Shown one piece after another: positions 10,643-63,087 of a stretch of DNA of 64,000 bases; the first letter of the stretch is position 1, and the number at the start of each line of letters is the position of its first letter. Position numbers and translations under genes: made by a program. Source of the DNA: Dehalococcoidia bacterium (lineage in GTDB: Bacteria > Chloroflexota > Dehalococcoidia > Lucifugimonadales > UBA3495); the NCBI GenBank assembly GCA_965197665.1, contig CBDANO010000003.1, positions 361,924-425,923 of the forward strand, written 5' to 3'. The notes beneath the pieces are model-generated. The model made no database searches. It had not been told where the DNA came from and worked only from the letters and a program-made list of their open reading frames with translations.

Positions 10643-10766
10643 AGGGGCTTCCCCTCTACTCCGGTGGAATTTCTCGAGAAGCCGGCAGACTCGAGTTTGG
10701 CAAAAGGGTCCGGATTCTAATCATGCCGCCGCGGGGCCTTTCGGCCAGCCCGCAGCCGGAGATGTT

Positions 10767-12410: not shown

Positions 12411-12478
12411 GGACCCTCGCCCGAAGCCTTCACTTGAAGCTCACACTCGGGTGGACGAGGGGGCAAGAAACTTGGTAC

Positions 12479-12490
12479 GGGGGGGGGGGG
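12479..12490. repeat. G12 homopolymer tract in an intergenic region
   Basis: Twelve consecutive G residues, about 60 nt upstream of the NIPSNAP gene start. Confidence 0.9.
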
Positions 12491-12548
12491 CTGCCCGACG
12501 GATATAGCCTGTATACGGCGCAAATTTGAGTAGGAGCAGGAGGAAAGG

Positions 12549-12869: not shown

Positions 12870-12910
12870 GGGTCGCTCAAGCCCCCGGCCCCGGGTCGGC
12901 CGTGCCTCGC

Positions 12911-39331: not shown

Positions 39332-42313
39332 ATGATTAGAACGCAAACGAGCATACACGACTTGTTCAAAGCTCAAGCCGCCCGGACCCCGGACGCCATC
39401 GCCTTGGTATCCGGCAACGAACAAATATCATACTCGGAGCTTGACCGGGTAACGGATTCCCTGGGGGCCTATCTTCGCCGCCGCGGGGTATCGCCCGACG
39501 ACCGGGTAGGTGTCCTGATGGAGACCTCCTGGGAGTACGTCGTCGCTTGCATCGGGGCCCTCAAAGCCGGGGGCGCCTTCATGCCCTTGGACTTGGACTC
39601 ACCCGATCATTTGCTGAAGGGCATCGTAGCGGAAGCAACACCGAGGGTAATAATAACCAAGAAGCAGCATGCCTCCCGTTCCAACCTGGATCCCGGCGCC
39701 CACGTATTAGTCTTGGACGCCGCTGAGTCTTGGAGCGAACTCGAAGCCGATCCGGACGGCCCCGTCGTCACCGGCGAGAACCTGGCCTTCGTGCCGTATA
39801 CCTCGGGTACCACCGGCGACCCAAAGGGAGTAATGCAGACCCACGGCGCCGTCACGTCGTCCTACTTCGCGCGGTACGAATTTAGTTCTTATCGAACCGG
39901 AGACCGGGTCGCTTGCAACATATTCTTAATATGGGAGTTTCTCCGGCCGTTGCTCAAGGGAGGGACGGTCTACGTAATTCCTGACGAGGTGATGTTCCTG
40001 CCCCGGGCCCTGACGGAGTTCATCTCCGAACACCGAATATCCGAGGTCTTGTTTACCCCCTCTCTGCTGCAAGGGGTTTTCAACTCGGCGAGCGTCGAGG
40101 ACTTGCGGGCCCGGCTTGAGTCCTTGCGGGTTGTTTGGTTGAACGGCGAGGTCGTGTCTTCCAGCCTCATAGACCAAGCGTTGAAAGTATTTTCCAAGGC
40201 CGCTCGAGTGCTGAATACTTACAGCATTTGCGAGACCCACGATGTTTGCACCGTGGAGTTGAAGAAAGGGGATTGGGACGGGCGGGACGTTTGCCCGGTG
40301 GGGCTTCCCATGGAAGGGGTGACGGTGCGGGTGCTGCCCGAGGGAGAGTCCTCGTTGGCCGCCGTGGGGATGGGCGAGATGTATATAGGGGGGCTGGGCT
40401 TGGCGAGGGGCTATCTGGGGAGGGAGGACTTGGACCAGCAGAAGTTCCTTCCGGTGGGCGGCGATAGGTATTACGCTACCGGCGACCTGGCCGAGATTGA
40501 TTTCCAAGGAATGGTAACCGTCACCGGCCGTAACGATTCGATGGTCAAGGTTAGAGGGTATAGCGTCTACCTCAGCGGTATAGAAGAGACTCTTAGGAAA
40601 CACTGCGATGTCCTCGACGCCGTGGTTACGGCGGAAGCGGAAGACGAGGCCAATAAGCGCCTGATGGCTTACGTTGTCCGCAAACCCGGCGCCGCTTGGC
40701 GGATCGATGCCGGGAGCGGGACTAGCAGGGAGCTGCAGAACCTATTGGACCGGTACCTCCCCCATTTCATGGTGCCCAGCCGGTACATGGAACTGGGCGA
40801 ACTTCCCATCAACCAACAGACGGGCAAACTTAACCGCAAGGCCCTCCCCAAGCTTCAGAAGATCAAGGCCCGCGCCAAGAACCGGGTGGTGAATCCCGAA
40901 CAAGCGACTATGGAGGAGCGGCGTTCGGTGTTGCGGGAGCTATGGGGCGAAGTTCTGGACATGGAGAAGGACTCGTTGGACGACGATTGGAATTTCTTGG
41001 AGCTTGGCGGCCATTCGCTGTCCGGTCTGGAGTTGACGCTGGGCATGGAGCGGGCGTTCGGAATTAAGCTCCAAGGGACGGAAGTCTACGATTACCAGAC
41101 CATCAACAAGCTGGCGGCTTATTTGGGAGATAGAGGTTCGCATATGGACTCCAAGATTTCCCTTGCCGAAGAAGCGCGCTTGGACCCGGAAATCGTGCCG
41201 GCCGGCGGGGCGGCTTGTACCCGCTTGAGTGAAGCGGGTTCGGTATTCATAACCGGCGCTACGGGTTTTCTGGGCGCCTTCCTTCTTGACGAGCTATTAC
41301 GCTCGACGAGCCGGGACACCAAGTTCTATTGCTTGGTCCGGCACCGGGGTGACCGGGGAGGGCCAGAGAGCAACCGGGTGTTAGACACTCTGAGGTTCTA
41401 CGATCTGCCGGGCCAAACGCTCCGTGACCGCGTCGTCCTAGTGAACGGCGATTTGACTCAACCCCAATTCGGATTGGACGATGGGGACTTCAACAGGCTC
41501 GCCAAAGACATGGACTTGATCTTTCACTGCGCGGCTTCCGTTAACTACGTCTACACCTATCCGGCGATCAAGCCCCATACCGTCGGCGGCACCGAAGAGG
41601 TGCTCAAGTTCGCCTGCCGGGCCAAGACCAAGCCGCTTCAGTACGTTTCATCCAATGGAGTTTTTCCCGGCGGAGACGCTACGCCCTACCTGGAAAACAA
41701 GGAGATAGCCGGTTGGGCCCATCGAATGGAGGGCGGCTACAACCAAGCCAAGTGGGTTGCGGAAATGCTGGTGTGGTCGGCCGTATCCCGCGGGCTGCCC
41801 GCCTGTATCTTTAGACCTGGGAACATTGGCCACCACAGCGTCACCGGCGTGGTCAACCCCAACGACTTCCAAACGTTGATAATCAAGTCCTGTTTGCGGG
41901 TTGGGTGCGCTCCCCGGACGCCGGACTGGTTGTTCGAGATGACCCCGGTGGACTTCCTGGTTGAAGCCGTGGCCAGGATAGCCGACGATCCGGTTCATCT
42001 GGGCAGGGTCTACAACGTCGTTCAGGGCGATCCGGTCCCAGCCGACCAAGTCTTCGGCTATATGAAAAGCAACGGGTACATAACGGAGCGCGTACCGTTG
42101 GCGGAGTGGAAGTCAAGATTGGAAGCTTTGGCAGATAAGGAGAACGATCTGGAGCTAAAGATGCTGGTCCAATCTCTGGACTCCGTTGAAGGGTACTTGA
42201 CCGACACCAGCGTCTACGACATCAGCAGGTTCAGCGAGGCTATATCAGCTATGGGCCTGACGCCGCCAACGGTGGACGTGGCCTACGTGACCAAATTCCT
42301 GAGCGGCTCGTAG
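39332..42313 (+). CDS. NRPS-like carboxylate reductase: adenylation - carrier (T) - thioester reductase (A-T-R)
   Basis: 993-aa ORF. A motifs are YTSGTTGDPKGV, NTYSICET, GEMYIGGLGLARGY, YATGD, GRNDSMVKVRGY and GKLNRKAL. The T motif is LELGGHSLSGLEL. The R domain begins FITGATGFLGAFLLDELL. Confidence 0.85.
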   Translation: MIRTQTSIHDLFKAQAARTPDAIALVSGNEQISYSELDRVTDSLGAYLRRRGVSPDDRVGVLMETSWEYVVACIGALKAGGAFMPLDLDSPDHLLKGIVAEATPRVIITKKQHASRSNLDPGAHVLVLDAAESWSELEADPDGPVVTGENLAFVPYTSGTTGDPKGVMQTHGAVTSSYFARYEFSSYRTGDRVACNIFLIWEFLRPLLKGGTVYVIPDEVMFLPRALTEFISEHRISEVLFTPSLLQGVFNSASVEDLRARLESLRVVWLNGEVVSSSLIDQALKVFSKAARVLNTYSICETHDVCTVELKKGDWDGRDVCPVGLPMEGVTVRVLPEGESSLAAVGMGEMYIGGLGLARGYLGREDLDQQKFLPVGGDRYYATGDLAEIDFQGMVTVTGRNDSMVKVRGYSVYLSGIEETLRKHCDVLDAVVTAEAEDEANKRLMAYVVRKPGAAWRIDAGSGTSRELQNLLDRYLPHFMVPSRYMELGELPINQQTGKLNRKALPKLQKIKARAKNRVVNPEQATMEERRSVLRELWGEVLDMEKDSLDDDWNFLELGGHSLSGLELTLGMERAFGIKLQGTEVYDYQTINKLAAYLGDRGSHMDSKISLAEEARLDPEIVPAGGAACTRLSEAGSVFITGATGFLGAFLLDELLRSTSRDTKFYCLVRHRGDRGGPESNRVLDTLRFYDLPGQTLRDRVVLVNGDLTQPQFGLDDGDFNRLAKDMDLIFHCAASVNYVYTYPAIKPHTVGGTEEVLKFACRAKTKPLQYVSSNGVFPGGDATPYLENKEIAGWAHRMEGGYNQAKWVAEMLVWSAVSRGLPACIFRPGNIGHHSVTGVVNPNDFQTLIIKSCLRVGCAPRTPDWLFEMTPVDFLVEAVARIADDPVHLGRVYNVVQGDPVPADQVFGYMKSNGYITERVPLAEWKSRLEALADKENDLELKMLVQSLDSVEGYLTDTSVYDISRFSEAISAMGLTPPTVDVAYVTKFLSGS

Positions 42314-42482
42314 CCTCCCTCCGGCCAATCAAGTCTCTCCCGTAATGCGCCCGTTCCAGGCTAGAAGAGCCGGCGTTAGGCCGGTGACTACAGTGTCGTT
42401 CTCGAGTATAGGGGACGCCATACCGGCCCCCGGTCCGAGTCTTCAGTACACCAGTGCGCCGATGCGTTCTGAGGAGCCGCAA

Positions 42483-43325
42483 ATGCAGGAATCACGAAAC
42501 ATTGCTTCAACCGTGGCCGTCACCAAAGAGTATTACGACGGCCCGGCCGATGAGATATACAAGCTGGTTTGGGGTGAAAACATACACCTTGGGATTCCCT
42601 GCAACGCCGATTGCCCGCATCCGAAAGCCATGGAACACACCAATGAGGTCATGGCCCGGATCGCCGGCTTGAAAAAGGGCTGGCGGGTGCTGGACTTGGG
42701 GTGCGGCTACGGGGCCGCCGCCCGTTATCTGGCTCGAAAGTACGGATGCGCGGTTGTGGGCGTCAACCTGAGTGAAAAGGAGTTGGCGGCGGCAAACCGG
42801 AGCGCCCGCGATGCCGGGCTACAGGGGCCGGTCTCCTTCGAGCTGGGGGACTTTCACTCTCTCAGGTTCGACAGCGAGTCCTTCGACGTAGTGTGGAGCC
42901 AGGAAGCCTTCCTCCACGGCGCGGACAAGTCCCAAGTGATTTCGGAGTGCAAGCGAGTGTTGGTACCCGGTGGCACTTTGATCTTTTCGGACCTCGTGGT
43001 GCGGTCCGGCACCCCCCAGGCCGACCGGGAGCGGATATACGACAGGATAAAATCGCCGGACATGTGGGACGCCGACGACTATCACCGCTGTTTGATTGAG
43101 CAAGGATTTCGGGTGATTCAAGCGGAAGACTGGTCGGGCCACGTGGCCAGGTCATACTCTTGGGTCCGGGATAAGGTGATAGAAAACCGAGGCGAACTGC
43201 TGGCTAGGACGGACTCGGAGACCATCGATCGAACGATCGATTCACTAAGGTTTTGGGTGGATTCGGCCAACGCCGGTAAGATCGGTTGGGCGTTGTTTGC
43301 GGCAGCAAAGGGGGCCGTGAATTAA
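42483..43325 (+). CDS. SAM-dependent N-methyltransferase resembling sarcosine/dimethylglycine N-methyltransferase
   Basis: 280 aa from ATG 42483 (GAGGAG RBS). It carries YYDGPADEIYKLVWGENIHLG and the SAM motif VLDLGCGYGAAARYLA. Size and N-terminal motif match halophile SDMT/DMT as I remember them. Confidence 0.7.
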   Translation: MQESRNIASTVAVTKEYYDGPADEIYKLVWGENIHLGIPCNADCPHPKAMEHTNEVMARIAGLKKGWRVLDLGCGYGAAARYLARKYGCAVVGVNLSEKELAAANRSARDAGLQGPVSFELGDFHSLRFDSESFDVVWSQEAFLHGADKSQVISECKRVLVPGGTLIFSDLVVRSGTPQADRERIYDRIKSPDMWDADDYHRCLIEQGFRVIQAEDWSGHVARSYSWVRDKVIENRGELLARTDSETIDRTIDSLRFWVDSANAGKIGWALFAAAKGAVN

Positions 43326-43413
43326 CAACCCGATGCGAAAGTTTTCCGGGCCGTGGATAGAATCGTCAATGTAACAACCCTGTCCTACAGCCCTTCTTAG
43401 GCGAGACGTTTAG

Positions 43414-43468
43414 GCTCCTACCCAACTTATTACTAATATTCTTTATTACAATTTATGATGGTAGGAGC
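43414..43468. other. 9-bp inverted repeat GCTCCTACC / GGTAGGAGC enclosing a 37-nt AT-rich loop
   Basis: Read directly from the AT-rich spacer between the two methyltransferase genes. Confidence 0.5.
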
Positions 43469-43640
43469 GTCAATACTCAAAACGGGCCGTATCATGCCGG
43501 TATTGTTCGAAATACGCTCTTGTTTCCGCGATACGCCCGCGGAGACCGTAACAATACCAACTAGCGGGGCCTGCATACGGCCATTTGACATACCCAAGTC
43601 AATTGGGTATAGGTAAGTCTACCCCCTTCTTTTTTGCATT

Positions 43641-43672
43641 ACGTTAACGTTTTGTTAGGGGAATGTTAACGT
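43641..43672. promoter_or_regulatory. Two GTTAACGT palindromic boxes 22 bp apart (the first is a perfect ACGTTAACGT); candidate operator
   Basis: Boxes lie at 43643..43650 and 43665..43672, which is 40-70 bp upstream of the GSMT-like start. Confidence 0.3.
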
Positions 43673-43710
43673 CATGTCAAGGCAATGTTATTGATTTCAG
43701 GAGAGCGACC

Positions 43711-44481
43711 ATGCGTACGTCTGAGAAACCGAGTTCCAAACTATTTCTCGAGCAATATACCCCTGCCTTTGTGAGCCGGTGGGATGAATTGATCGACTGG
43801 AAGAGCCGCCGCCGCTCCGAAGACGGGTTCTTCGAGAGGCTCCTGTCTAACACCGGCGCCCGGAAAGTGCTGGATATTGCTTGCGGCACGGGCTATCACA
43901 CGATAAACCTCAGGCTGACGGGCTTCGAAGTGACAGGCGCGGACGGGTCCGCCAACATGCTCTCCAAAGCCCAAGAAAACGCCAACCGGTACGGGTTGGG
44001 AAACATCCGTTTCGTGGAAACTGAGTGGGCCTCTTTGAGCGAATCGTTTCCCGGCGGCAATCAGTTCGATGCCATAGTTTGCTTGGGGAACGCTTTCACC
44101 CACTTGTTTGAAGAACACGACCGGGTCGCAGCCCTCAGGGAAATCTACTCCCTCTTGAACCCCGGCGGAATCGCAATCATAGACCACCGCAACTACGACT
44201 CCATACTCGAAGAGGGATTCAGCAGCAAGCACCAGTACTATTACCTTGGCGACACCGTAGATGTCCGACCGGCTATCGTCCACCCAAACACCCTCGAGTT
44301 GGAATACAACTACGAAGACGGGGAAACTCACTTCCTTACCCTATTTCCGCTGCGCCAAGAGTACCTGACCGGGTTATTGCGGCGGACAGGCTTCGCCTCG
44401 GTGGTCCGCTACGGGGATTTCGAGGAAGACTACGACGCCTTGGCCCCCGACTTCATAGTTCAAGTGGCGACGAAGACCTAG
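43711..44481 (+). CDS. SAM-dependent N-methyltransferase resembling glycine/sarcosine N-methyltransferase
   Basis: 256 aa from ATG 43711 (AGGAGA RBS). It carries WDELIDWKSRRRSEDGFFERLL, VLDIACGTGYHTINL and GADGSANML, a layout typical of GSMT/GNMT-type enzymes. Confidence 0.7.
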   Translation: MRTSEKPSSKLFLEQYTPAFVSRWDELIDWKSRRRSEDGFFERLLSNTGARKVLDIACGTGYHTINLRLTGFEVTGADGSANMLSKAQENANRYGLGNIRFVETEWASLSESFPGGNQFDAIVCLGNAFTHLFEEHDRVAALREIYSLLNPGGIAIIDHRNYDSILEEGFSSKHQYYYLGDTVDVRPAIVHPNTLELEYNYEDGETHFLTLFPLRQEYLTGLLRRTGFASVVRYGDFEEDYDALAPDFIVQVATKT

Positions 44482-45284: not shown

Positions 45285-45361
45285 TGGTAGCGCGTGCGGG
45301 ATTCGAACCCGCGATCTCCGCCTTGAGAGGGCGGTGTCCTTGGCCTCTAGACGAACGCGCC
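45285..45361 (-). tRNA. tRNA-Glu (anticodon CUC), CCA encoded
   Basis: A 77-nt cloverleaf was folded by hand: acceptor GGCGCGT/ACGCGCT, D arm GTCT-AGAGGCCAA-GGAC, anticodon arm CCGCC-CTCTCAA-GGCGG, T arm GCGGG-TTCGAAT-CCCGC, then ACCA. The D and anticodon arms closely match E. coli tRNA-Glu as I remember it. Confidence 0.9.
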
Positions 45362-45636: not shown

Positions 45637-47208
45637 CTAGCCCAACGGTCCTCGCCCGGCGACGAAGGAATCCCGCGCCCGGACCACTGCCTTGAGCTTG
45701 GCCTCCGCAACGCCGGCGGAAGCTACTGGGTTGTCGGCGAAGGTGGCGAATCCGCAGTCGGGAGTGAACAAGACGCGCTCCCGTCCGAAGAGATGGACGG
45801 CTTGGTTTATTCGCCGGCGTATGTCCTCGTTCGGCTCCACGGCGTCCACCTTTTGGTTGACGACACCGACGCCGACCCGCTTGTCGTCAGGGATGCCCCG
45901 GAGCACCTCAGCCTCGCCGGCGCGCTCGGTGCAAAGCTCCAGGAACAAGACGCCGACCTCCGCCCGCTTCAGAAGGTCCAAGAGCGGCCGGTAATCGCCG
46001 GCCAAGGCGGCGGACTCGTCGCCGGTCCAGTTGCCCCGGCAGATGTGCAGGCCCAAGCGCTCCTTGGGCAGGCCCAGGACCACTTGGTTCAGCAGCCCGA
46101 CGGCGAAGTCCAGCTCTGGGCCCGGGGCCAGCTTTTCGCTCAGGGCGCCGCACATGAAGCTGCGGGTCCGGCTGGCGGCGCCGAAGACGACCTCGGTCAG
46201 CACCGGCTCGTCGAACTGCACCAAGGCCGCGCCGGAGGCCAGCAGGAAATGCAGTTCCTCACGGACTACCCGGACGATGTCTCGGGCCAGTTCCTCCCGG
46301 GTCCGGTAAGGGCGGTCAGTGAGGCAGTCCAGCCACATGGTGCGCGTGAGCAAGTAGGGGCCGGGCAACGCCACTTTCACCGGCAGGTCGGCGCAAGTCT
46401 TGGCAAAGTCGAATTCGTGGACGGCTAGAGGCCTGCTCCGGCCCAGACTGCCGTAGACCACCGGGTGCCGGACCTCCGCCGCGGGAACGTCGAGGGCGCG
46501 AAGCTCCAACTCGAACTCTTCCGGGTCGTCCACCATGGCGGTGAGGTCGCTGAGGGGGATGAGCTGGCAGTTGTCCAGCAGCCCGCCAACGAAGCTGGCG
46601 TAGCTGTCCCGCCGTTGTTCGCCGTCGGTCAGAACGTCAACCCCCGCCCTAAGCTGGGCGTCAAGGCAGAGACGCACCGCGTCGTCCGCCGTGGCCTGGT
46701 AGTCGGCCTCGTCCAGCCGGCCCTCCAAGCGGTCGTGTATGGCTTGGAGCATCCATCGGGGCCGGGGCCAACTCCCGATGCCCATGACGGACAACGGACC
46801 AATCTTTGGGGCCCGGACCGGCGGCGGCAGCGATCCGGGGATGGCCACCGGGACCCGTAGCTGCTCGCCTATTCCCGCGGCGGACGCTTGGGTGCCGTGC
46901 GGGGCGTCATCGATGTCACGCTCAATACCGCGCTCAACATCACGGTCAATATATGGGCCCTTGCTGACCAGAAAGCTTCGCCGGCGGCCCTCCTTGGTCC
47001 AAGAGACCAGTTCGTTTTTGGTCAACCGGCACCAAGCCGGGAGTTCGACCTCAACCGTTGAATCGGTGGACAGGATTTCCAGCAGGCCGCCGGGGTTCAA
47101 GGGGTCGATGTGCCGGCGGATAAGCAGCAGCAATCCGCCGCCGCAGTCTAGGTCTCCGCCGTCGAAGCTAACGTCAGGTTGGCGGGCGTGTTGTGGGACC
47201 GGTTCCAT
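45637..47208 (-). CDS. Fusion protein: N-terminal TusA-like domain plus C-terminal cobalamin-independent methionine synthase (MetE catalytic-domain)-like Zn methyltransferase
   Basis: From ATG 47208 the N-terminus reads GGDLDCGGGLLLLIRRH...LPAWCRL (TusA/SirA-like). The C-terminal 370 aa carry MetE-like zinc ligand motifs LHICRGNW, LFLELCTE and FTPDCGFAT. Confidence 0.75.
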   Translation of the reverse strand: MEPVPQHARQPDVSFDGGDLDCGGGLLLLIRRHIDPLNPGGLLEILSTDSTVEVELPAWCRLTKNELVSWTKEGRRRSFLVSKGPYIDRDVERGIERDIDDAPHGTQASAAGIGEQLRVPVAIPGSLPPPVRAPKIGPLSVMGIGSWPRPRWMLQAIHDRLEGRLDEADYQATADDAVRLCLDAQLRAGVDVLTDGEQRRDSYASFVGGLLDNCQLIPLSDLTAMVDDPEEFELELRALDVPAAEVRHPVVYGSLGRSRPLAVHEFDFAKTCADLPVKVALPGPYLLTRTMWLDCLTDRPYRTREELARDIVRVVREELHFLLASGAALVQFDEPVLTEVVFGAASRTRSFMCGALSEKLAPGPELDFAVGLLNQVVLGLPKERLGLHICRGNWTGDESAALAGDYRPLLDLLKRAEVGVLFLELCTERAGEAEVLRGIPDDKRVGVGVVNQKVDAVEPNEDIRRRINQAVHLFGRERVLFTPDCGFATFADNPVASAGVAEAKLKAVVRARDSFVAGRGPLG

Positions 47209-47242
47209 CAGGGGGCCTCGGATGTGGGTATGGAACAACCGC

Positions 47243-47605
47243 TTAGTAGGTGATGCAGGGTGTGCCGTTGCTGAGAAACTCCACCAGTACGGCCCCGCCG
47301 ACGATTCTCGCGCCATCGACCAGATTACTTTCATCCAGCCCGCGTTTCCTAAAACACGGGGCGCAGACGTAGATGCTCCCCTCTGCGGTGGCGAAGTTGT
47401 CCATCAGTTCCTTGAGGGGCAGGTACCCCTCCTCGTGGACGTCGTCTGGGTATCCCTTTTGGGACAGCCGGACGCCTTCGGTGCTAAGGAAGACGACGGT
47501 GTCCTTTTCCGAGCCGAGGGCCGCGTTGGCTAGGACGAAAGCCACGGTCGCCTTGTCGGTGTCGTCCTTAGCGCAGGTGAGGCTAACGCAGAATTTATCC
47601 GCCAT
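47243..47605 (-). CDS. DsrE/DsrF-like sulfur-relay family protein
   Basis: 120 aa from ATG 47605, with KATVAFVLANAAL ... YVCAPCFRKRG. Confidence 0.65.
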   Translation of the reverse strand: MADKFCVSLTCAKDDTDKATVAFVLANAALGSEKDTVVFLSTEGVRLSQKGYPDDVHEEGYLPLKELMDNFATAEGSIYVCAPCFRKRGLDESNLVDGARIVGGAVLVEFLSNGTPCITY

Positions 47606-47640
47606 TTTGGTCCGTATTCCCTCCGGTGCGTAATTTGTTA

Positions 47641-47907
47641 CTAGTTGCTTTTTGCTTCGATCCAGTAGTGAGGATGCTCGGCGCGGAGCAGCCGGCGGCC
47701 GGTCATCCGGCACCAAGCCGGCAGGTCTTCGGGAGCGCCCAGGTCCTGGGAGGTCAGCTTAAGCACGTCTCCCGGGTTGAGCTTTCTCATTCGGAGCCGG
47801 AGCAAGATGATGACCTCGCCGCAACCCATGTGGCCCGCGTCCCATTCGTCGGCGACGGGCATATCGGCCTCTTGGAACCGGGGAGCGCCCGGCTCAAAGT
47901 TGGTCAC
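47641..47907 (-). CDS. TusA-like sulfurtransferase family protein
   Basis: 88-aa ORF with HMGCGEVIILLRLRM...DLPAWCRMTG. It parallels the N-terminal domain of the fusion protein. Confidence 0.65.
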   Translation of the reverse strand: MTNFEPGAPRFQEADMPVADEWDAGHMGCGEVIILLRLRMRKLNPGDVLKLTSQDLGAPEDLPAWCRMTGRRLLRAEHPHYWIEAKSN

Positions 47908-48620: not shown

Positions 48621-49400
48621 CTACGGTTCTTCCACAAGTTGTAGGTTGCACGCTGCCGCAGCGCTGAAGAATGCCATCGGTGGGCCTGCATCGTCGGGTT
48701 GCAGCGCTGCGGCCACTCCTTCAGGTCCACCCAACTCGTCCATCACGCATTCCAGGCCTTCCCGGTCGTCAGGACCAAAGCCCAACGAGGGACCGGCAGC
48801 CTGCCACTCCTCTTCGTTCAGGCAGGATAGCGTCACCAGGAAGCCGGCCATACTGCCTACCATGGCCGCTGCCTCGTCGGACTCCCCGGACGTGGCAAGC
48901 ATAATGGCGCGAAGGTCGAAGTCCTCGAATCCACTGCGAACGCACGCCGAGGTCTCCCCGCTCAGCGGCCCGGTCTGACCGGTCAGTCCGGTCAGGAACA
49001 GCCTCAGCAACGTCTCTTGCTCCAGGCATTGGAATAATTCCGCAGCCTCCTCGGGCGAGACAAGGTCTGGGCCGTCCTCCGGCGCCATGAGCCGCTGGAG
49101 GTCAACGTTCTCCGGGAGGCAGGACTGCTCGACGGCCGATAGCTCGGACAGGAACACCTGCGGGTCCTCTAGGTTAAGGGGAAGGATCGCTCCGGACCCT
49201 GGAGCGGGTTTCGGTGCTGCCTCTGTCGGCAGGGGAGTGGTCGTGGGGGCCGGCGTTGGGGTTGGAGCGGGTGTGGGAGTAGGCGCCGGGGTAGAGGTCG
49301 GAACTGGTACAGTGGTTGAAGTCGGTGTCGGTGTCGGGCTGGAACAGGCTAACACCGAGGCCAGTACCAGAAAGATTGCGCAAGACAGGACTTTCAACAT
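48621..49400 (-). CDS. Putative lipoprotein with a Pro/Thr-rich linker
   Basis: From ATG 49400 the protein reads MLKVLSCAIFLVLASVLAC (signal peptide plus lipobox-like Cys). This is followed by a (TP/AP)n linker of about 45 aa and an acidic domain. Confidence 0.6.
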   Translation of the reverse strand: MLKVLSCAIFLVLASVLACSSPTPTPTSTTVPVPTSTPAPTPTPAPTPTPAPTTTPLPTEAAPKPAPGSGAILPLNLEDPQVFLSELSAVEQSCLPENVDLQRLMAPEDGPDLVSPEEAAELFQCLEQETLLRLFLTGLTGQTGPLSGETSACVRSGFEDFDLRAIMLATSGESDEAAAMVGSMAGFLVTLSCLNEEEWQAAGPSLGFGPDDREGLECVMDELGGPEGVAAALQPDDAGPPMAFFSAAAACNLQLVEEP

Positions 49401-49675
49401 CAAAGCATCACCACCCCTGAGACTAGGCAACCTCCACCTAGTTGGGCGTGGCCGCCACTCCACCGATTGTATCTCAGAGCACCAGGACCAGACCCTCGAA
49501 ACGCGGGCGAGATTCCAACAGTTCCAGCAAGGCTCGAGCCTTTCCAGGAATGCGGAGCAGCAAGAATAACCGGCCTGAGTTAGTCCTGCTGATTGACGAC
49601 AATAAGGGATGCCGGTAGCGTCGACTATTTTTGCCGGTTTAGATGAGGTAAACCCTCCGGCACGGAGGTGCCGGA

Positions 49676-51178
49676 TTGATCAAAGACCGACAAGTCAGGC
49701 TACTGAGGCAGAAACTTATGAAAGGAAAGACACAGGAGACGGCGGCGGCCATGGCTGGGATGAGCGTGCGATCGGCGCGCAAGTGGCAGAGCGGCCCGTT
49801 GCCGTCGGAGACCAGGCAGGATCGCTGGTGGCGCACCCGGCCCGACCCCTTCGACGGGATTTGGGAGGAGGAGATTGAGCCCCTGTTGCAAGGTGATCCA
49901 GCGGGCAGGCTGAAAGCAACGACAATTATCGAATGGTTGGAGGAGCGGCATCCCGGCCGGTTCAGCGCCTCGCAACTGCGTACCCTGCAACGACGACTAC
50001 AGGACTGGCGAGCGCTGAACGGTCCCGATCAGGAGGTGTACTTCCCCCAGGAGCATCCGCCGGGCCGGGAAGCCCAGTTCGACTTCACTCACTGCAATGC
50101 CCTGGGCGTGACCGTCGCCGGCCAGCTCTATCCCCACCTGCTGTTCCAAATGATTCTCAGCCACTCGGGGTGGCGTTACGCCGAGGTCGCCACCGGCGAG
50201 ACCTTCCTGGCATTGCAGCAGGGACTGCAGTCCGCCCTCTGGGCTTTGGGCGGTGTACCGGAGGTGGTGCGCAGCGACAATACGTCTGCCGCCACCCACG
50301 AAATGCGCCGCAGCCGCGGCCGCGCACTAAACGACAATTACGCCGCCCTCCTGGACCACTACGGCCTGCGCTCCACCCGCATCAATCGTGGCCAGAGCCA
50401 TGAAAACGGCATAGCCGAGCAGGGACATTATCGCCTCAAGGATGCCGTGGACCAGGCCCTCATCCTGCGCGGCAGCCGCGATTTCCACACCGCCGACGAT
50501 TACGCCGGTTTCGTCCAGCAGATGGTCGAGAAGCGCAATCGCCTGGTGAAGGGGAAGCTGGAGCAGGAAATGGCTTGCCTACGGCCCCTGCCGCCAGCTC
50601 CCATGCCGGAATACGTCAACTACCAGTCCAGGGTGCGCAAGTGGAGCACCATCCAGGTAGCGGGACATAGCTACAGCGTCCCATCCCGTCTCATCGGCAA
50701 GGAAGTGCAGATCCGTCTGTACTCCGACTGGGTGGAAGTGTACTACAAGAGCCACCTGGTGGAGGGCATGTCGCGGGTGCGTGGCGAAGGGGAGTCCAAC
50801 GTCAATTACCGCCACGTCATCGGCTCGCTGGTGCGCAAGCCCGGGGCCTTCGCTCGCTACCGCTTCCGGGAGCAGCTGTTTCCCACCATGCCCTTCCGGC
50901 TGGCCTACGACGCACTAAAGGAGTGGCGTGGCGAGCGTGCCGACGTGGAGTACGTGCGTATCCTGCAGCTGGCGGCCACGACCATGGAAGCCACGGTGGA
51001 CAGCGCGCTGTCGTTGCTGCTGGAGGCGGGTGAGCCCTTCGACTACACCCAGGTCCGGGACCTGGCCGAGCCGAAGCCTCCCGAGGCCCCGGCGCTGGCC
51101 TGGTCCGGGCAGCCGGACCTGAAAATCTACGACGGCCTGCTCACGAGCAGTCTGTCAGTGGCGGCGGTGGGTGGATGA
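49676..51178 (+). CDS. istA: IS21-family transposase IstA
   Basis: 500-aa ORF with an N-terminal HTH and a DDE integrase core. Layout is typical: it overlaps istB by 4 nt (ATGA). Confidence 0.9.
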   Translation: MIKDRQVRLLRQKLMKGKTQETAAAMAGMSVRSARKWQSGPLPSETRQDRWWRTRPDPFDGIWEEEIEPLLQGDPAGRLKATTIIEWLEERHPGRFSASQLRTLQRRLQDWRALNGPDQEVYFPQEHPPGREAQFDFTHCNALGVTVAGQLYPHLLFQMILSHSGWRYAEVATGETFLALQQGLQSALWALGGVPEVVRSDNTSAATHEMRRSRGRALNDNYAALLDHYGLRSTRINRGQSHENGIAEQGHYRLKDAVDQALILRGSRDFHTADDYAGFVQQMVEKRNRLVKGKLEQEMACLRPLPPAPMPEYVNYQSRVRKWSTIQVAGHSYSVPSRLIGKEVQIRLYSDWVEVYYKSHLVEGMSRVRGEGESNVNYRHVIGSLVRKPGAFARYRFREQLFPTMPFRLAYDALKEWRGERADVEYVRILQLAATTMEATVDSALSLLLEAGEPFDYTQVRDLAEPKPPEAPALAWSGQPDLKIYDGLLTSSLSVAAVGG

Positions 51179-51957
51179 TGAACACCGACACCCGCGTCGT
51201 GCAGGAACGCATCGGCCAGCTGTGCCACCAATTCAAGCTGCCCACGGTGGCGGCGGAAACCACTTCGCGTTTCACCGAGGCAGGCCACGGCGACGCCCTG
51301 CCCACCCTGCTTGAGGTGTTGGAGCAGGAAGCCGAGGATCGCCGCCAGCGACGCATCATCCGGCTGCTTCGGGAATCCAGGCTGCCTTTGGGCAAGACCT
51401 GGGAGACCTTCGAGCACCACCGGATGCCCTTGGCGCTGCGCCAGCAACTGGACCATCTGGCCCAGGGCAGTTTCGTGGAGCACGGCGTCAACGTCCTGGC
51501 CTTCGGATTGCCCGGCACCGGCAAGACCCATGCCCTGTGCGCCCTGGGCCACCGGCTGGTGGAAGCCGGCCACTCCGTCCTCTTTGCCCCAGCCTACCGC
51601 TTGGTGCAGGAACTCCTCGCCGCCAAGCGAGACCTGGACCTGCCCCGCCGGCTCCGCAGGCTGGACAACTTCGACTTCCTGCTCCTGGACGACCTGGGCT
51701 ATCTGCCCCAGGGGGCCGAGGAGTCCGAGGTGCTCTTCACCCTCATCGCCGAGCGCTACGAACGGAGGTCCCTGGGCATAACGTCAAACCTGGTCTTCTC
51801 CGAGTGGGAGCGCATCTTTGCCAACCCCATGGCCACCGCCGCGGCCATCGACCGGGTGGTGCACCACTCCGTCATCCTCGAGTTTGACGTCCCCAGCTAC
51901 CGGACTGATGCAGCCCAGCAACGGGGACAACCACAGGAGGTGAACCGGCAAAACTAA
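51175..51957 (+). CDS. istB: IS21-family ATP-binding helper IstB
   Basis: 260-aa ORF with Walker A GLPGTGKTH and Walker B FLLLDDLGY. Confidence 0.9.
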   Translation: MMNTDTRVVQERIGQLCHQFKLPTVAAETTSRFTEAGHGDALPTLLEVLEQEAEDRRQRRIIRLLRESRLPLGKTWETFEHHRMPLALRQQLDHLAQGSFVEHGVNVLAFGLPGTGKTHALCALGHRLVEAGHSVLFAPAYRLVQELLAAKRDLDLPRRLRRLDNFDFLLLDDLGYLPQGAEESEVLFTLIAERYERRSLGITSNLVFSEWERIFANPMATAAAIDRVVHHSVILEFDVPSYRTDAAQQRGQPQEVNRQN

Positions 51958-52110
51958 TCGACGACTATTCGGCACAAATAGTTGACGCGGGACACCTGCG
52001 GAGGGCGAAGTCGCGGACATAAAGCTTTATCCTCCGGGAAGTTTGGTAAAGGGGACTTGGAGGTGAAAGATAATAAGACCGGGGAAACCGGAGGAGTGAG
52101 GTGGACCCAG

Positions 52111-53050
52111 TCAGTTGGACAGAATTAAGGCGGAGTTAAGTGAGGGTCCCGCCGCTCCCGCATAAGATACCACGTCTGCTTCCGGCGACCACCTCCCAAC
52201 TGTTGACTCTTCATTTTGGGGCTCCCGGCCCTCAGAGAACACTTCCCCCGGCGTCCTATATCCCAAGGCCTGATGAGGCCTCTGGTCATTATAGAACCGG
52301 AAGTAAGCTCCCAGTTCCCTCCGGGCCTCCCCCGCGCTGGCGTAGGCTTTCAGGTACACCTCCTCGTACTTCACCGTGCGCCACAGCCGCTCGACGAAGA
52401 TGTTGTCCGCGTACCTCCCCTTCCCGTCCATGCTGATCTTCACACCGCGGTCCTGAAGGACCTGGGTGAATTCCTGGCTGGTGAACTGGCTCCCTTGGTC
52501 GGTGTTGAACACCTCCGGCCTTCCCCTCTCCATCGCCTCGATCAGAGCCTCGGCGCAGAAGCCGGCCTCCAGGGTGTTGGACAGACGCCAGGACAGGACA
52601 TACCGGCTGTGCCAGTCCATGACGGCCACCAGGTAGAGGAATCCCCGGGCCATGGGCAGGTAGGTGATATCGGCGGCCCACACCTGGTTGGGTCTGGTGA
52701 TTGCGGCCTTCCCCAACAGATAGGGATAGACCCGCACTCCCGGCGCCGGTCGGCTGGTTCTGGGTCGCCGGTAGATGGCCCTCAGTCCCATGACCCGCAT
52801 CAGCCGCTGCACCCGCTTCCGGCTCACCTGCTTGCCCTGCCGCTCCAGCCAGACCTTCATCCGCCTAGACCCATAGAAGGGGGTCTCCAGGTACTGCCGG
52901 TCCATCTCCCGCATCAGCGGCCCGCTTCCGAAGCCCCCTGGGGACGGTAGTAGATGCTGGAGCGGCTCACCCCCAGCAGGGCGCATTGCCCCACTATCGG
53001 CAACGAGGGATGCTCCCGGTCCACCATCTCCCGCCGCCGGGCCGGGTTCA
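52111..53050 (-). pseudogene. IS3-family transposase OrfB (DDE integrase core) with an internal frameshift
   Basis: ATG 53050 overlaps the orfA stop (ATGA) and reads MNPARRREMVDREHPSLPIVGQCALLGVSRSSIYYRPQGASEAGR, stopping at 52914. The integrase core (PLMREMDRQY...WAADITY...TDQGSQF) continues in another frame to 52111. Confidence 0.7.
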
Positions 53051-53332
53051 TGGACCGGACCTCTCCGCCAAGAAATCCCGCTCCACCTTCAACTGGCCGA
53101 TCTCCTGGTACAGGCGGGCGACCAGGGCAGCGTCGCTCTTGGCCTTCTGGTCCTGACCGTTGCCGAACACACCGGCGGCACCCCCGGTCAGGACCTTCTT
53201 CCAGGCTTGAATCTGCCCCGGGTGGACTTCGTGCCGGGCCGCCAGTTGGGCCACTGTCTCCTCTCCCTTCACCGCATCCAGGGCCACCCTGGCTTTGAAG
53301 GCCGGGCTGTGTTTCCTTCTTCCTTGCGCCAT
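53048..53332 (-). CDS. IS3-family transposase OrfA (HTH)
   Basis: From ATG 53332: MAQGRRKHSPAFKARVALDAVKGEETVAQLAARHEVHPGQIQAWKK, followed by a leucine-zipper-like tail. Confidence 0.8.
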   Translation of the reverse strand: MAQGRRKHSPAFKARVALDAVKGEETVAQLAARHEVHPGQIQAWKKVLTGGAAGVFGNGQDQKAKSDAALVARLYQEIGQLKVERDFLAERSGP

Positions 53333-53401
53333 GTCCTTCTCCTTCCAGACAGCAACAGCTGCCCTTAGTTTAGGAGCGGGACTCCCCACTAACCAATGTC
53401 G

Positions 53402-54796
53402 TCACGCGGCAATTGGCGCGCCAGAGGGTGCATAGGTTGTGTGTTCCGGAGCATCGGGCATGGGCACCAGCTGATAGCCCAGTTGCGCCGCCCGACGCTT
53501 TGCCGCGCGCAACGCCCGCTGCTGATATCGACGTTCGTAGTATTCGGCCCCGGCGTCCACGTACTCTTGGCCGTATCGCAGCATGGAATAGATGATGCGA
53601 GCCAGCTTGTGAGCGGTGGCAGTGATGGCCTTGGGCGCGCCCATCTGTGCCTTCTTCCGGCGCAGGAAGGCGCCCAGGGCGCTGTCGGAGTGGTGCAGCG
53701 CGTTGGCCGCCAGACGTAAGGCCGCCGACGCCCGGTTGGCGCTGGGCTTGGTCTTGGAGCTCATGACCTTGCCGCCGGTGATGCGGTTGTTTGGGCTCAA
53801 CCCCAACCAGGACGCAAAGTGCTTCGCACTCGTCCATTTCGTCATGTCGGTGCCAATCTCACTCACCACCTTGAACGCGGTGTAGGCATCCACACCGTCG
53901 ATCTGGGTCAGGTCAACCCCCGTCATACAGTACAGGTGCGTCCAAACGTCGAAGCGTGGCGCGTTTCCCTTGCTGCGTCTCCGGCCGGACTTCGCCGCTG
54001 GAAGATCACCATTGCTGTGACCCTCAAACCGCTCCAGCTGGGCTTCAATCTCCCGGTCGCACTCGGCAATCTTATCCTGATAGAACCGGTACAGCTCCAG
54101 GGCCTGGGTCAGCTCGAAGATGTGCTCTTCCCGCCAGTGGCCTTGCAGCGACTTGGCGATGGTTGCCTCGTCGGCCTTGATCCTGGGGTCGCGCAATAGC
54201 GCCAGTTGTCGCGGGTCCCGTTGGCCGCCCACGATGGCTTCGATGATGTCCAGGCCGGTCTTGCCCGTGATGTCGCTGATGACGTGGTGGAGCTTCACGT
54301 TCATCTGGGTCAGCGCCTTCTGCATGTGCTGGACGTGATGAGAGGCGTACTGCACCAGCATGGCCCGCTGCCGCAGGTAGCTGCGCAGGCGGCGTATATC
54401 CTCGTTCGGCCGAAAGGCCCCGGAGAGCAGCCCGTAGGTGTGCAGCTGTTGCAGCCACTGGCAGTCCAGAACGTCGGTCTTGCGGCCGGGCACGTTCTTG
54501 ATGCGCCGGGGGTCCACCAGCATCACCTGGAAGCCCCGTTCTTCCAGCACTCCGAACAACGGTATCCAGTACACGCCGGTGGACTCCATAACCACGATCT
54601 CCACACCACACTCGGCCAGCCAGTCCGCCAAACGGTACAGGTCCGCCGTGAAAGCCTCAAACTCTTGCACCGGCTGTTCCGAGCGATTAACGGGAACCGC
54701 CACGAAATGGCTGGTGGCGCCCACGTCGATGCCCGCCGCGTTCAGGTTCAACTGGGATAGCTCCGCCGGATTCGTGCTGATCTTGCCTCTCTTCAT
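53402..54796 (-). CDS. IS110-family (DEDD) transposase/recombinase
   Basis: From ATG 54796: NAAGIDVGATSHFVAV...VVMESTGVYWIPL. The C-terminal domain reads LTQIDGVD...SWLGLSPNNRITGGK. Confidence 0.85.
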   Translation of the reverse strand: MKRGKISTNPAELSQLNLNAAGIDVGATSHFVAVPVNRSEQPVQEFEAFTADLYRLADWLAECGVEIVVMESTGVYWIPLFGVLEERGFQVMLVDPRRIKNVPGRKTDVLDCQWLQQLHTYGLLSGAFRPNEDIRRLRSYLRQRAMLVQYASHHVQHMQKALTQMNVKLHHVISDITGKTGLDIIEAIVGGQRDPRQLALLRDPRIKADEATIAKSLQGHWREEHIFELTQALELYRFYQDKIAECDREIEAQLERFEGHSNGDLPAAKSGRRRSKGNAPRFDVWTHLYCMTGVDLTQIDGVDAYTAFKVVSEIGTDMTKWTSAKHFASWLGLSPNNRITGGKVMSSKTKPSANRASAALRLAANALHHSDSALGAFLRRKKAQMGAPKAITATAHKLARIIYSMLRYGQEYVDAGAEYYERRYQQRALRAAKRRAAQLGYQLVPMPDAPEHTTYAPSGAPIAA

Positions 54797-55095
54797 CGCC
54801 CCTCCGCCATTGCCGTGTAGGCCCATCGCCGGAGGGAGTCGCGAACTGTAGACAATCTCCCCAACGGGATCGCCCTGACCGGGGCGTCACCAATGATGCC
54901 GTCGCAAGTCTCCCAGACCATGCTCTCACCCGGGCAATGCGCACCAGTGTCCACTCGGCCTCAATCCGGACGACAGGCCTCATCGGGAGCCTACACCACT
55001 GGCGGGACTATCTGGTTAGTCGCCTCTGCACGGCCCGGATACGGGCATAACATTGCTCTCTCACTTAGCCACCTGTCCAGTTTTCCGGGTCCACC
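54797..55095 (-). ncRNA. Candidate IS110 5' non-coding RNA (bridge-RNA-like) region
   Basis: Call rests on position only: a 299-bp ORF-free segment directly upstream of the IS110 recombinase, where IS110-group elements encode their guide RNA. Confidence 0.3.
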
Positions 55096-55728
<633 letters not shown>

Positions 55729-55822
55729 TCACATCGTCCAGTGTCCTGTAAAATCTCCGATGGACGCAAGGATTTCCCATTGTGAAAGCCAGTGACAGCA
55801 AGGATGCTGGCGTGAGGATTCA

Positions 55823-58501: not shown

Positions 58502-58631
58502 ATGCCCTTACTGGGTCAGAGTTGCGAAGTGGTAGCGGCAGGTTTGACAAGGCATACCGGTGGGATTACGATAAACCCGATAAATGTCATTAACATCGTT
58601 AAAATTCAACTGGCATCAGGGAGGCTCTCCG

Positions 58632-58853
58632 ATGACTCAAATCACCGCGCGTGTGCCGGACCAACTGGTGGAAGCGTTGGACGGGGCCGCTGCACAGCTC
58701 AAACGCAGCCGCGCCGACGTTATTCGCCACGCGTTGGAGCATTATTTGGAGGACTTCGACGACCTCACCGTAGCAGTGGAACGGCTGCGGGACCCGTCCG
58801 ACCCTGTCTTGGACTGGGATGAGGTCCGGAGTGACCTACTCGGTTCGGATTAA
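58632..58853 (+). CDS. Ribbon-helix-helix (CopG/RelB-like) antitoxin
   Basis: 73 aa from ATG 58632 (GGGAGG RBS), reading MTQITARVPDQLVEALDGAAAQLKRSRADVIRHALEHYL. Confidence 0.75.
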   Translation: MTQITARVPDQLVEALDGAAAQLKRSRADVIRHALEHYLEDFDDLTVAVERLRDPSDPVLDWDEVRSDLLGSD

Positions 58854-59091
58854 GCGCACAGCCGCCAAGGAGTTGGCCGGGATTCCGCAACCGGCAAGGA
58901 CTCGCATGGTCCATGCCATTGACTCGCTCATTGAGCAGCCCTTGGCCGGGATCCCGCTCAAGGGAGGTCTCCGCGGGTTGCGGCGCCTGCGCGTTGGCGA
59001 CTACCGGATTGTGTACGAACTGCTGGACGACGAACTTGTCGTCCTGGTGGTCCGGGTAGCTCACCGCCGCCACGCCTACCGCCCGGCGTAA
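58819..59091 (+). CDS. RelE/ParE-family toxin
   Basis: YSVRIKRTAAKELAGIP...LRVGDYRIVYELLDDELVVLVVRVAHRRHAY. It overlaps the antitoxin 3' end. An alternative GTG start is at 58831. Confidence 0.8.
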   Translation: MRSGVTYSVRIKRTAAKELAGIPQPARTRMVHAIDSLIEQPLAGIPLKGGLRGLRRLRVGDYRIVYELLDDELVVLVVRVAHRRHAYRPA

Positions 59092-59263
59092 CCTACGGCC
59101 AACACTCAGAACTATCTACATTCAACCCTGGCAAGCCGTGAATGTTGGGTGCGTAGCTCTCGCGGCGGGTTTGAGACCCACCGTTTTGCCGACCGAAGCG
59201 ACGACTCGCCGTCCCAAAGCTGAGCCCCAGGTCAACGGGAGTCGGACTACCAATCCGCCCCAA

Positions 59264-59341
59264 TTTCTATCCCCGCGCCTACGGGGGAACATACGTTAAC
59301 TTGGCTGAACATGGTCTATTCCCACTTTCTGTGGGGAACTC
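59264..59341 (-). CRISPR. Degenerate two-repeat mini-array with type I-E-like repeats and a 20-nt spacer
   Basis: The minus strand reads GAGTTCCCCACAGAAAGTGGGAATAGACC, then ATGTTCAGCCAAGTTAACGT, then ATGTTCCCCCGTAGGCGCGGGGATAGAAA. Both 29-mers fit the I-E repeat pattern GAGTTCCCC-hairpin-GGGGATAAACC. Their hairpins are kept by compensatory changes (CCCAC/GTGGG versus CCCCG/CGGGG). Confidence 0.55.
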
Positions 59342-61881: not shown

Positions 61882-61908
61882 CAAATAACTTTACTAAGGA
61901 GTCTCCCC

Positions 61909-63075: not shown

Positions 63076-63087
63076 GCGGTATAGCTA

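Follow-up and report, generated by a model that had tools for sequence, protein, structure and literature searches.

What does an enzyme built on the catalytic barrel of methionine synthase do when it is fused to a sulfur-carrier domain and encoded next to two further sulfur-carrier proteins? The question is raised by a three-gene locus in a 64,000-nucleotide stretch of DNA from a Dehalococcoidia bacterium (hereafter the window; assembly GCA_965197665.1, contig CBDANO010000003.1, positions 361,924 to 425,923 of the forward strand), which encodes a TusA-like protein, a DsrE-like protein and a fusion of a TusA domain with a MetE-type core. The parts of the trio all come from known families. TusA/DsrE relays supply sulfur for the thiolation of tRNA and for dissimilatory oxidation of sulfur, TusA has a further role in molybdenum-cofactor synthesis, and MetE-type enzymes are methyl, and rarely other alkyl, transferases acting on free thiols. 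Judged by sequence comparison, the trio enzyme is probably not an ordinary methionine synthase, and carrier-bound sulfur is probably what the module uses to form or convert an amino acid containing sulfur or possibly selenium. We tentatively favour reading the trio as a sulfane-sulfur relay that would end in a zinc-dependent alkyl-transfer enzyme of the MetE family, in effect a carrier-dependent homocysteine synthase.

The three genes are codirectional and closely spaced, as the earlier note on this DNA described, and the open reading frames together with a coordinate check place them on the minus strand from 47907 to 45637. The TusA-like and DsrE-like genes are 35 nt apart, the DsrE-like gene and the fusion 34 nt, and a Shine-Dalgarno-like GGAG/GAGG motif lies 5' of each gene. 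The features are:

47641 to 47907, minus strand: free TusA-like carrier gene, 88 amino acids, GTG start, Pfam TusA
47243 to 47605, minus strand: DsrE-like gene, 120 amino acids, Pfam DsrE
45637 to 47208, minus strand: whole fusion gene, 523 amino acids, comprising TusA domain, linker and MetE-type catalytic barrel
46954 to 47181, minus strand: TusA domain of the fusion, approximately residues 10–85, with a sub-threshold Pfam TusA match and a fold match
46804 to 46953, minus strand: linker, approximately residues 86–135, acidic, proline-rich and predicted to be disordered
45664 to 46803, minus strand: MetE-type (Meth_synt_2) triosephosphate isomerase (TIM)-barrel module, approximately residues 136–515
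46324 to 46569, minus strand: stretch bounded by Cys214 and Cys295, cysteines that are invariant only in the fused clade
46150 to 46152, minus strand: Cys353 of the S-F-M-C-G motif, part of an insertion that follows the DEP strand

The fusion is genuine. It is a single open reading frame in 74 full-length relatives from about 10 phyla, the alignment of which underlies the invariance counts given for the fused proteins, and the three-gene order is intact in about 55 of 80 loci, spread over many phyla, that were retrieved in a scan of one genome per species; the combination is far beyond chance. The best 120 database relatives are all full length, mostly about 506 residues long and 72–99% identical. 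Within the 80 genome loci, the DsrE-like gene lies directly 5' of the fusion in 75, and a free TusA is present in about 56, in the order found in the window; loci from Binatia are devoid of the free TusA, and in Betaproteobacteria an ATP-binding cassette (ABC) transporter or two uncharacterised envelope proteins are encoded between DsrE and the fusion. The closest hosts are soil Dehalococcoidia (84% identical). Other hosts include metagenome-assembled genomes labelled Latescibacterota, Binatia, Planctomycetota, Rokubacteria, Methylomirabilota, Verrucomicrobia, Acidobacteria, Actinomycetota and Betaproteobacteria. A neighbour census of the genome loci found no gene beyond the trio that is kept across phyla, and the trio is therefore the unit.

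Two seeming departures from the fused architecture were rejected: P0135, in appearance a standalone relative with 58% identity, proves to be a fused gene whose limits were called wrongly on a contig of low coverage that contains Ns, and a DsrE gene and a TusA domain are found 5' of it, while the 702-residue P0025 is a frameshift read-through. P0141 is a degenerate family member without the H-x-C motif.

The N-terminal domain of the fusion matches the Pfam TusA profile just under its cut-off (E 1.1e-5, 25.6 bits versus 28.6), and the N-terminal 90 residues, modelled alone with a predicted local distance difference test (pLDDT) score of 92.8, match E. coli TusA from the IscS-TusA complex (3lvj_C) with a Foldseek E of 4.4e-6, a template modelling (TM) score of 0.86 and a root-mean-square deviation of 1.6 Å. 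The TusA-like assignment made in the earlier note is thus upheld by the fold, next to a sub-threshold profile. After entries for E. coli TusA/YhhP, the next-best fold match is YeeD of the YeeE-YeeD thiosulfate importer. Cys22 (codon 47143–47145) lies in a DCGGG motif inside the stretch matched to TusA and is invariant in 74 of 74 fused proteins; Cys60 (47029–47031) is kept in 73 of them. The linker that follows is poorly conserved and varies in length among relatives, and its residues 92–121 have pLDDT values below 50 in the full-length model (pLDDT 71.6, predicted TM score 0.68), so that it might serve as a swinging arm.

The catalytic module matches Pfam Meth_synt_2 (PF01717) with E 4.8e-27 and 95.5 bits versus a cut-off of 21. 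Among solved structures it comes nearest to MesD (3rpd; phmmer 3.2e-20, Foldseek 4.5e-18) and next to C-terminal barrels of MetE, and Foldseek comparison of the barrel with 3rpd and 1t7l gives E values from 1e-15 to 1e-18; profile and fold matches therefore bear out the architecture of TusA-like N-terminus, acidic linker and MetE-like module that had been read from the letters. The zinc ligands H388 (46045–46047) and C390 (46039–46041) in LHICRGNW, E424 (45937–45939) in LELCTE and C485 (45754–45756) in PDCGF are intact, as had been noticed, and they are invariant in the 74 fused proteins and in 66 sequences of an unfused sister family described below. The counterparts of the homocysteine-binding residues, S146 (46771–46773), E197 (46618–46620) and D333 (46210–46212), align to the substrate residues of MetE and MesD and are invariant in both families; the roles of the zinc-site and homocysteine-binding residues are taken from Price et al. 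2021 (PMC7857596).

The module also carries cysteines of its own. Cys353 is present in 74 of 74 fused and 66 of 66 sister-family enzymes, at a position that is a gap opposite both MesD 3rpd and Thermotoga maritima MetE, and it is a family-defining fifth cysteine. Cys214 (46567–46569; NCQLIP motif, within an insertion at residues 209–245) and Cys295 (46324–46326; WLDCL motif) are each found in 74 of 74 members of the fused clade and are replaced in the sister family by V/M/I and G, respectively. C214, C295 and C353 all lack a cysteine counterpart in the aligned MetE and MesD sequences.

The two small proteins, for which the earlier note had named GCGE and CAPC motifs, belong to the families to which it had assigned them. 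The free TusA-like protein matches Pfam TusA above the cut-off (E 2.7e-8, 34 bits versus 28.6), and its Cys29 (47821–47823), in the motif HMGCGE, aligns opposite Cys19 of E. coli TusA; Cys29 and a second cysteine, Cys66 (47710–47712), are invariant across 56 homologues. The DsrE-like protein matches Pfam DsrE (PF02635) with E 9.4e-13 and 48.8 bits versus a cut-off of 22.7, and its nearest structure is the DsrE/DsrF-like protein 3mc3, one cysteine of which aligns with C81. TusA proteins usually carry a CPXP active-site motif and DsrE proteins usually a single conserved cysteine (PMC11094781). The CPXP motif is absent from the trio, which has C-G-E in the free protein and C-G-G in the fused domain, and the DsrE-like protein is likewise atypical in that C81 (47363–47365) and C84 (47354–47356) form a CxxC pair, within the motif VCAPCF, which is invariant in 75 homologues. 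DsrF and DsrH genes are absent near the trio loci, which argues against membership in the DsrEFH/TusBCD group, and TusC models score 16–18 bits on the DsrE-like protein versus cut-offs of 79–94. The YedF model (TIGR03527) is not among the NCBIfam matches at E <0.01; TusA and DsrE are separate genes here, and only the CxxC is shared with YedF.

An exhaustive search of 1.84 billion cluster representatives returned few fused proteins, and the nearest unfused cores are 34–42% identical. One of these, P0145, sits between a rhodanese gene and an OsmC-like gene, and a separate standalone core with 34% identity, P0177, follows a DsrE-like gene with a CGIC motif. Neighbours of the P0145 family, which is the sister family referred to above and shares the H-x-C-R-G-N-W motif with the fused family, were counted in 80 metagenome loci. 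Of these, 70 have an adjacent OsmC-like gene (51 of the 54 that span 4 kb or more) and 35 an adjacent two-domain rhodanese; core, OsmC-like protein and rhodanese make up the recurrent operon, and MerA-like disulfide reductases occur in five loci. About 10 of the 80 also have a TusA-like gene or domain; in the case inspected (L164) a TusA domain forms the N-terminus of OsmC, with a DCGSG motif likened to that of the fused domain in the window. Nine loci have the order free TusA, DsrE, TusA-OsmC, core, in which DsrE is 62–74% identical to the DsrE of Paracoccus. On sequence comparison, then, a MetE-like subfamily is defined by Cys353 and by the obligatory company of sulfur-handling cysteine proteins, and its two architectures, which reuse the same parts, represent an independent convergence of sulfur carriers on one enzyme family. 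As a separate observation, the archaeal sister loci L151, L154 (2567–4006) and L163 encode a protein matching NF038049, 'SelD-related putative sulfur metabolism protein', with 658 bits, accompanied by a TusA of the canonical CPXP type and an acylphosphatase-like gene (both assigned by eye), next to TusA-OsmC, core and rhodanese.

TusA, DsrE, rhodanese and OsmC-like proteins, joined in one lineage by a SufS desulfurase, converge on a single enzyme subfamily that has the additional invariant Cys353. The most economical explanation is that these proteins deliver protein-bound sulfane sulfur, or selenium, to its zinc site, and the intact amino-acid-binding triad suggests a homocysteine-shaped ligand. 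Sulfur partners in two architectures, Cys353, the lack of a methyl-donor partner or riboswitch and the failure of curated models (see below) also favour the view in the earlier note that the enzyme is not a classical MetE and is coupled to carrier-bound sulfur; its suggestion of a carrier-dependent homocysteine/methionine step comes close to the reading favoured here, in which the step would be that of a homocysteine synthase. The gene neighbourhoods of the trio point to sulfur or selenium assimilation. In 12–14 of 15 loci of the Binatia type, metY, metX, metW and a nucleoside-phosphorylase-like gene are divergent from DsrE and the fusion; a CysB-family LysR regulator is adjacent in six loci from several lineages; and sulfatases are encoded nearby in 'Latescibacterota'.

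We infer the following direction of sulfur flow, role of Cys353 and amino-acid substrate. The free TusA-like protein would first receive a persulfide (or thiosulfonate) from a donor in the cell, for which a SufS-type cysteine desulfurase and a rhodanese, both co-encoded in some lineages, are candidates; the DsrE-like protein would then hand the sulfur on to Cys22 in the TusA domain that the enzyme itself carries. This domain, on its flexible linker of about 50 residues, would swing the sulfur into the barrel, probably onto Cys353 beside the zinc, and the metal, held by H388, C390, E424 and C485, would activate the terminal sulfur as a nucleophile, as MetE does with homocysteine. S146, E197 and D333 would hold an amino acid with a four-carbon skeleton, to which the sulfur would then be attached. 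The likeliest substrate would be an activated homoserine (O-acetyl- or O-phospho-homoserine), giving an enzyme- or carrier-bound homocysteine disulfide that the CxxC of the DsrE-like protein would resolve, with release of homocysteine; in relatives, the OsmC-like protein with TrxB or a MerA-like reductase may carry out the resolving step. Persulfides are stronger nucleophiles with a low pKa (PMC11039317), and the TusA-like YeeD, which works with an importer on thiosulfate, provides a precedent (PMC11073785). In its most specific form the proposal amounts to a new route to a C-S (or C-Se) bond, by a zinc-dependent homocysteine synthase that would be independent of pyridoxal phosphate (PLP) and join a persulfide to a homoserine ester, and we regard this form as possible but doubtful; that such an enzyme would draw its sulfur from the TusA/DsrE (or rhodanese/OsmC) relay rather than from free sulfide or cysteine is held with the same hesitation.

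Several points weigh against a carrier-dependent homocysteine synthase. In Binatia the neighbouring MetY already makes homocysteine, which would render a second route redundant, and the metY context suits a methionine synthase equally well. The weight of the triad as evidence for an amino-acid substrate is uncertain. The loops that hold Cys22 and residues 201–258 (C214), 294–299 (C295) and 350–356 (C353) are low-confidence parts of the full-length model. The OsmC-like partner has one cysteine in two sequences inspected, and a role as dithiol reductant is therefore not general. Several contexts would seem to fit selenium rather than sulfur. Finally, we know of no precedent in the MetE family for a zinc-bound persulfide attacking an acyl- or phospho-homoserine.

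The alternative that survives best is that the trio encodes a fifth kind of core methionine synthase, in which the barrel would methylate homocysteine with a donor still to be identified while TusA and DsrE would be accessories, for donor handling or for activation or repair of the zinc/thiol site, in parallel to the need of MesD for MesX. The zinc ligands, S146, E197 and D333 are all invariant, MesD is the closest structure, the best-scoring curated models are all methionine synthases, metY-metX-metW are adjacent in Binatia, and core synthases with unexplained partners already exist (PMC7857596). The scores, however, fall far below every curated cut-off: on the window protein and on its relatives alike, none of 8–11 curated methionine-synthase models comes near its threshold, the best model reaching 148–215 bits versus 406 (NF003317, 147.6 bits on the fusion in the window), and full-length MetE models score 65–73 bits on the fusion versus cut-offs of 541–930. 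The N-terminal domain is TusA and not the folate-binding Meth_synt_1 barrel. In a census of 160 loci, of which some neighbours were scanned with profiles, no corrinoid protein, DUF1852/MesX or methyltransferase is conserved nearby, and neither the window nor 21 loci covering every phylum sampled yielded an S-adenosylmethionine (SAM) or B12 riboswitch or a T-box. A thioether or persulfide on TusA is no activated methyl donor. A core methionine synthase would moreover leave four types of sulfur-handling protein and the invariant Cys353 unexplained, and the host already has MetH. We consider this alternative unlikely.

The metH gene (plus strand) bears on this point, since the earlier note had described it as frameshifted. 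The frame change is present: the first four domains lie at 7102–9912 and the activation domain at 9818–10642 in the +1 frame. It coincides with a run of seven C at 9799–9805 and is probably a homopolymer assembly error; the idea of a damaged gene is thus probably mistaken, and a metH that is probably intact says little either way on the role of the trio.

A second alternative, which we judge rather improbable, is that selenium is handled instead of, or besides, sulfur. An imported oxyanion would be reduced, carried as perselenide on TusA, DsrE, OsmC or rhodanese and processed by the zinc enzyme; the outcome would be either a supply for selenocysteine synthesis or selenium that is sequestered or made harmless, perhaps in the form of selenohomocysteine. 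A role for selenium is suggested by gene contexts that the earlier note had missed. The cultured Paracoccus versutus and Paracoccus ferrooxidans have a 58%-identical fusion, annotated as MetE, and in P. ferrooxidans (L090, CP038202.1) the extended cluster lies in a selenocysteine island:

L090, 2496 to 3065 (minus strand), 10548 to 12919 and 18587 to 18680, and L092, 3379 to 5154: selenocysteine-island elements

The order in this genome is selB, LysR, a gene for a UGSC-family selenoprotein, a divergent SufS-type desulfurase, TusA, DsrE, a 168-residue membrane protein, a 522-residue envelope protein, the fusion, selA and trxB, with tRNA-Sec downstream, and the selenoprotein consists of two annotated reading frames joined by an in-frame TGA (GLAN-U-GSC). 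In a subclade of Dehalococcoidia (L038, L044) a HemW-like radical-SAM gene comes after the trio, and selB after that. PhnD/E/C-type ABC importers are encoded within the operon in Rokubacteria, Methylomirabilota and Betaproteobacteria, and also in sister-family loci; the binding protein of the transporter beside sister locus L164 passes the cut-off of the model TIGR04553, 'putative selenate ABC transporter', with 337 versus 250 bits, and weaker relatives of it occur inside the operon in the same three lineages. The sole curated match of the OsmC partner is 'OsmC-related (seleno)protein', the LysR neighbour has a sub-threshold match to a selenium-associated LysR, and the combination of TusA with a CxxC DsrE mirrors the selenium-associated YedF, which has TusA-like and DsrE-like parts with CGXC (PMC5322559).

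Against selenium, genes for selenocysteine adjoin the trio in two lineages only; the remaining 78 genome loci and all 80 sister loci have none. A search with an E. coli SelD sequence, 98.8% identical to the real E. coli selD, detected no selD at any of the loci, including about 50 kb around the P. ferrooxidans island. The YedF model is unmatched, most selenium-labelled matches are below their cut-offs, and TIGR04553 is itself a putative assignment. The contexts in Binatia and 'Latescibacterota' are those of sulfur and methionine, and in none of the homologues examined is a conserved cysteine replaced by an in-frame TGA.

Two recurrent neighbours were observed beside these clusters. The envelope pair between DsrE and the fusion (L090 6853–8937 in Paracoccus; L065 3921–5980 in a betaproteobacterium) consists of a 168-residue membrane protein with a CVSC motif and a 522-residue protein that carries a signal peptide and is anchored at its C-terminus; neither matches a family, and uptake is a possible function of the two as a system. 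The other neighbour is a secreted transglutaminase-like protein, encoded by the trio (L047, L049, L055, L056, L063, L042 and L090 3469–4575) in Planctomycetota, Rokubacteria, Acidobacteria and Paracoccus, and a transglutaminase-like enzyme is among the predicted associations of YedF (PMC5322559).

A third possibility takes up the methylation of sulfane sulfur that the earlier note had offered as an example: the zinc site would methylate a carrier-bound persulfide, reduction would free methanethiol, and MetY would convert this with O-acetylhomoserine directly to methionine. MetE-family zinc sites do transfer methyl groups to sulfur, metY and metX are adjacent in Binatia, and the CxxC partner could free the product. 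No methyl-donor gene is associated with the trio, however, the invariant residues that would hold the amino-acid backbone point to an amino-acid substrate and would go unexplained, and methanethiol metabolism is unseen in the contexts examined; the example finds no support, and we consider it very unlikely.

Downstream of the fusion, Binatia encode a regulator of the Fur family, a GTPase of the COG0523 type, secreted proteins rich in His and Asp and a protein resembling those of the outer membrane (assigned by eye; for example L050 10251–13527 and L048 7669–9339), a set that occurs in this one lineage and resembles a zinc-limitation regulon. Least probable of all is a role for the small cysteine proteins, in place of sulfur carriage, as metal (zinc) chaperones or as redox protection for an oxidation-sensitive, otherwise ordinary homocysteine methyltransferase. 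The Fur-family, COG0523-like and His-rich genes would speak for it, as would DsrE-like CxxC proteins noted beside zinc-import genes (bioRxiv 10.1101/2022.07.06.499078). Against it, the zinc-related context is confined to a single lineage, the rhodanese and SufS-type partners belong to sulfur metabolism and are no metal chaperones, and the fused domain retains the persulfide cysteine and the TusA fold.

How does a carrier-dependent homocysteine synthase of this kind relate to known systems? Thiocarboxylate carriers feed homocysteine synthesis via MetY-type or threonine-synthase-like enzymes, a case of a protein carrier as sulfur source, and epoxyalkane:coenzyme M transferase, a MetE-family enzyme that moves a non-methyl alkyl group, takes the zinc site beyond methylation. 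To our knowledge, none of these systems, which pair ubiquitin-like thiocarboxylates with PLP enzymes or coenzyme M with an epoxide, joins TusA/DsrE persulfides to a MetE-type barrel.

The closest solved structure is that of MesD, a core folate-independent methionine synthase working with MesX/DUF1852 (PDB code 3RPD; Price et al. 2021, PMC7857596). Both are single MetE-type barrels without the folate-binding N-terminal barrel (Foldseek E 4.5e-18, TM score 0.74), retain the zinc ligands together with the Ser/Glu/Asp residues by which homocysteine or selenomethionine is bound, and depend on partner proteins whose roles are unclear. The fusion differs from MesD, however, in sequence (about 23% identity), in having sulfur carriers and no DUF1852 protein as partners, and in the N-terminal TusA domain, two large insertions and the extra invariant C353, C214 and C295. 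With MetE it shares PF01717, the H-x-C...E...C zinc site and the GS(W/F)P, DGE and DEP substrate motifs, but it is 17–20% identical to MetE structures and lacks the Meth_synt_1 barrel that binds methyltetrahydrofolate.

On the carrier side, the trio resembles YedF in its domain types (TusA/SirA-like and DsrE-like), the CxxC in the DsrE part and an occasional position beside selenocysteine genes; unlike YedF, its components are separate genes, its TusA motif is CG(E/G) instead of CPXP, and it is always coupled to a MetE-like enzyme. The relays of sulfur oxidisers transfer persulfide or thiosulfonate stepwise among TusA, DsrE-type proteins and rhodanese, and TusA-DsrEFH-DsrC, TusA/DsrE3/rhodanese and IscS-TusA-TusBCD share carrier folds and cysteine positions with the trio (PMC11094781, PMC4175335). 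The terminal acceptor of the trio is, however, a MetE-type zinc enzyme and not DsrC/DsrAB, sHdr or a tRNA-thiolation enzyme, and the trio has no DsrF/DsrH, a CxxC in place of a single cysteine and a non-canonical TusA motif. YeeE(TsuA)-YeeD(TsuB) also combines a TusA-fold protein with a sulfur-oxyanion importer (PMC11073785; PDB code 8j4c), but its transporter belongs to another family than the PhnCDE type and it includes no MetE-like enzyme. Full-text literature searches returned no description of a TusA::MetE architecture or of a TusA/DsrE/MetE partnership, and Price et al. 2021 (PMC7857596) makes no mention of the architecture.

The surroundings of the trio in the window were also inspected. 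Upstream of the TusA gene, 48621–49463 (minus strand) encodes a 280-residue Pro/Thr-rich putative lipoprotein that has no Pfam or NCBIfam match and is not kept beside the trio in other loci, and a tRNA-Glu(CTC) gene lies directly 3' of the fusion at 45285–45361. Just past the trio are istA/istB of an IS21 element (49676–51957), followed by an rve integrase (52111–52986, minus strand), an IS110 transposase (53402–54826, minus strand) and a type I-E CRISPR-Cas set (cas3, cse2, cas7, cas5) at 55823–63915; positions 49676–63915 together with the surroundings of tRNA-Glu are a mobile or variable region. On the other side, 39332–44481 (plus strand) encodes a 993-residue protein with adenylation, thiolation and reductase domains, similar to non-ribosomal peptide synthetases, and then two SAM methyltransferases, the best matches of which are sarcosine/dimethylglycine and glycine/sarcosine N-methyltransferases, each below cut-off. 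This segment resembles a cassette for N-methylation of the betaine type with a carboxylate reductase coupled to it.

The conserved union of a carrier with a MetE-type enzyme, found in about 10 phyla and in two architectures and equipped with a putative catalytic cysteine of its own, would provide a new end-point for protein-bound sulfane sulfur, and the trio enzyme probably represents a new activity for the methionine-synthase fold. With cultured Paracoccus versutus and P. ferrooxidans at hand, the question is experimentally accessible. Should the trio act on selenium, it would fill a gap that now lies between the uptake of selenium and the synthesis of selenocysteine. Should its product be homocysteine or methionine, reconstructions of metabolism in which these genes are labelled 'MetE', as happens in Paracoccus, would be wrong, and gaps in the sulfur-amino-acid pathways of uncultured soil lineages may be explained. 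A persulfide-dependent homocysteine synthase, if true, would be a route widespread in soil bacteria and archaea; it would give the MetE superfamily a new type of reaction and TusA/DsrE relays a new terminal acceptor.

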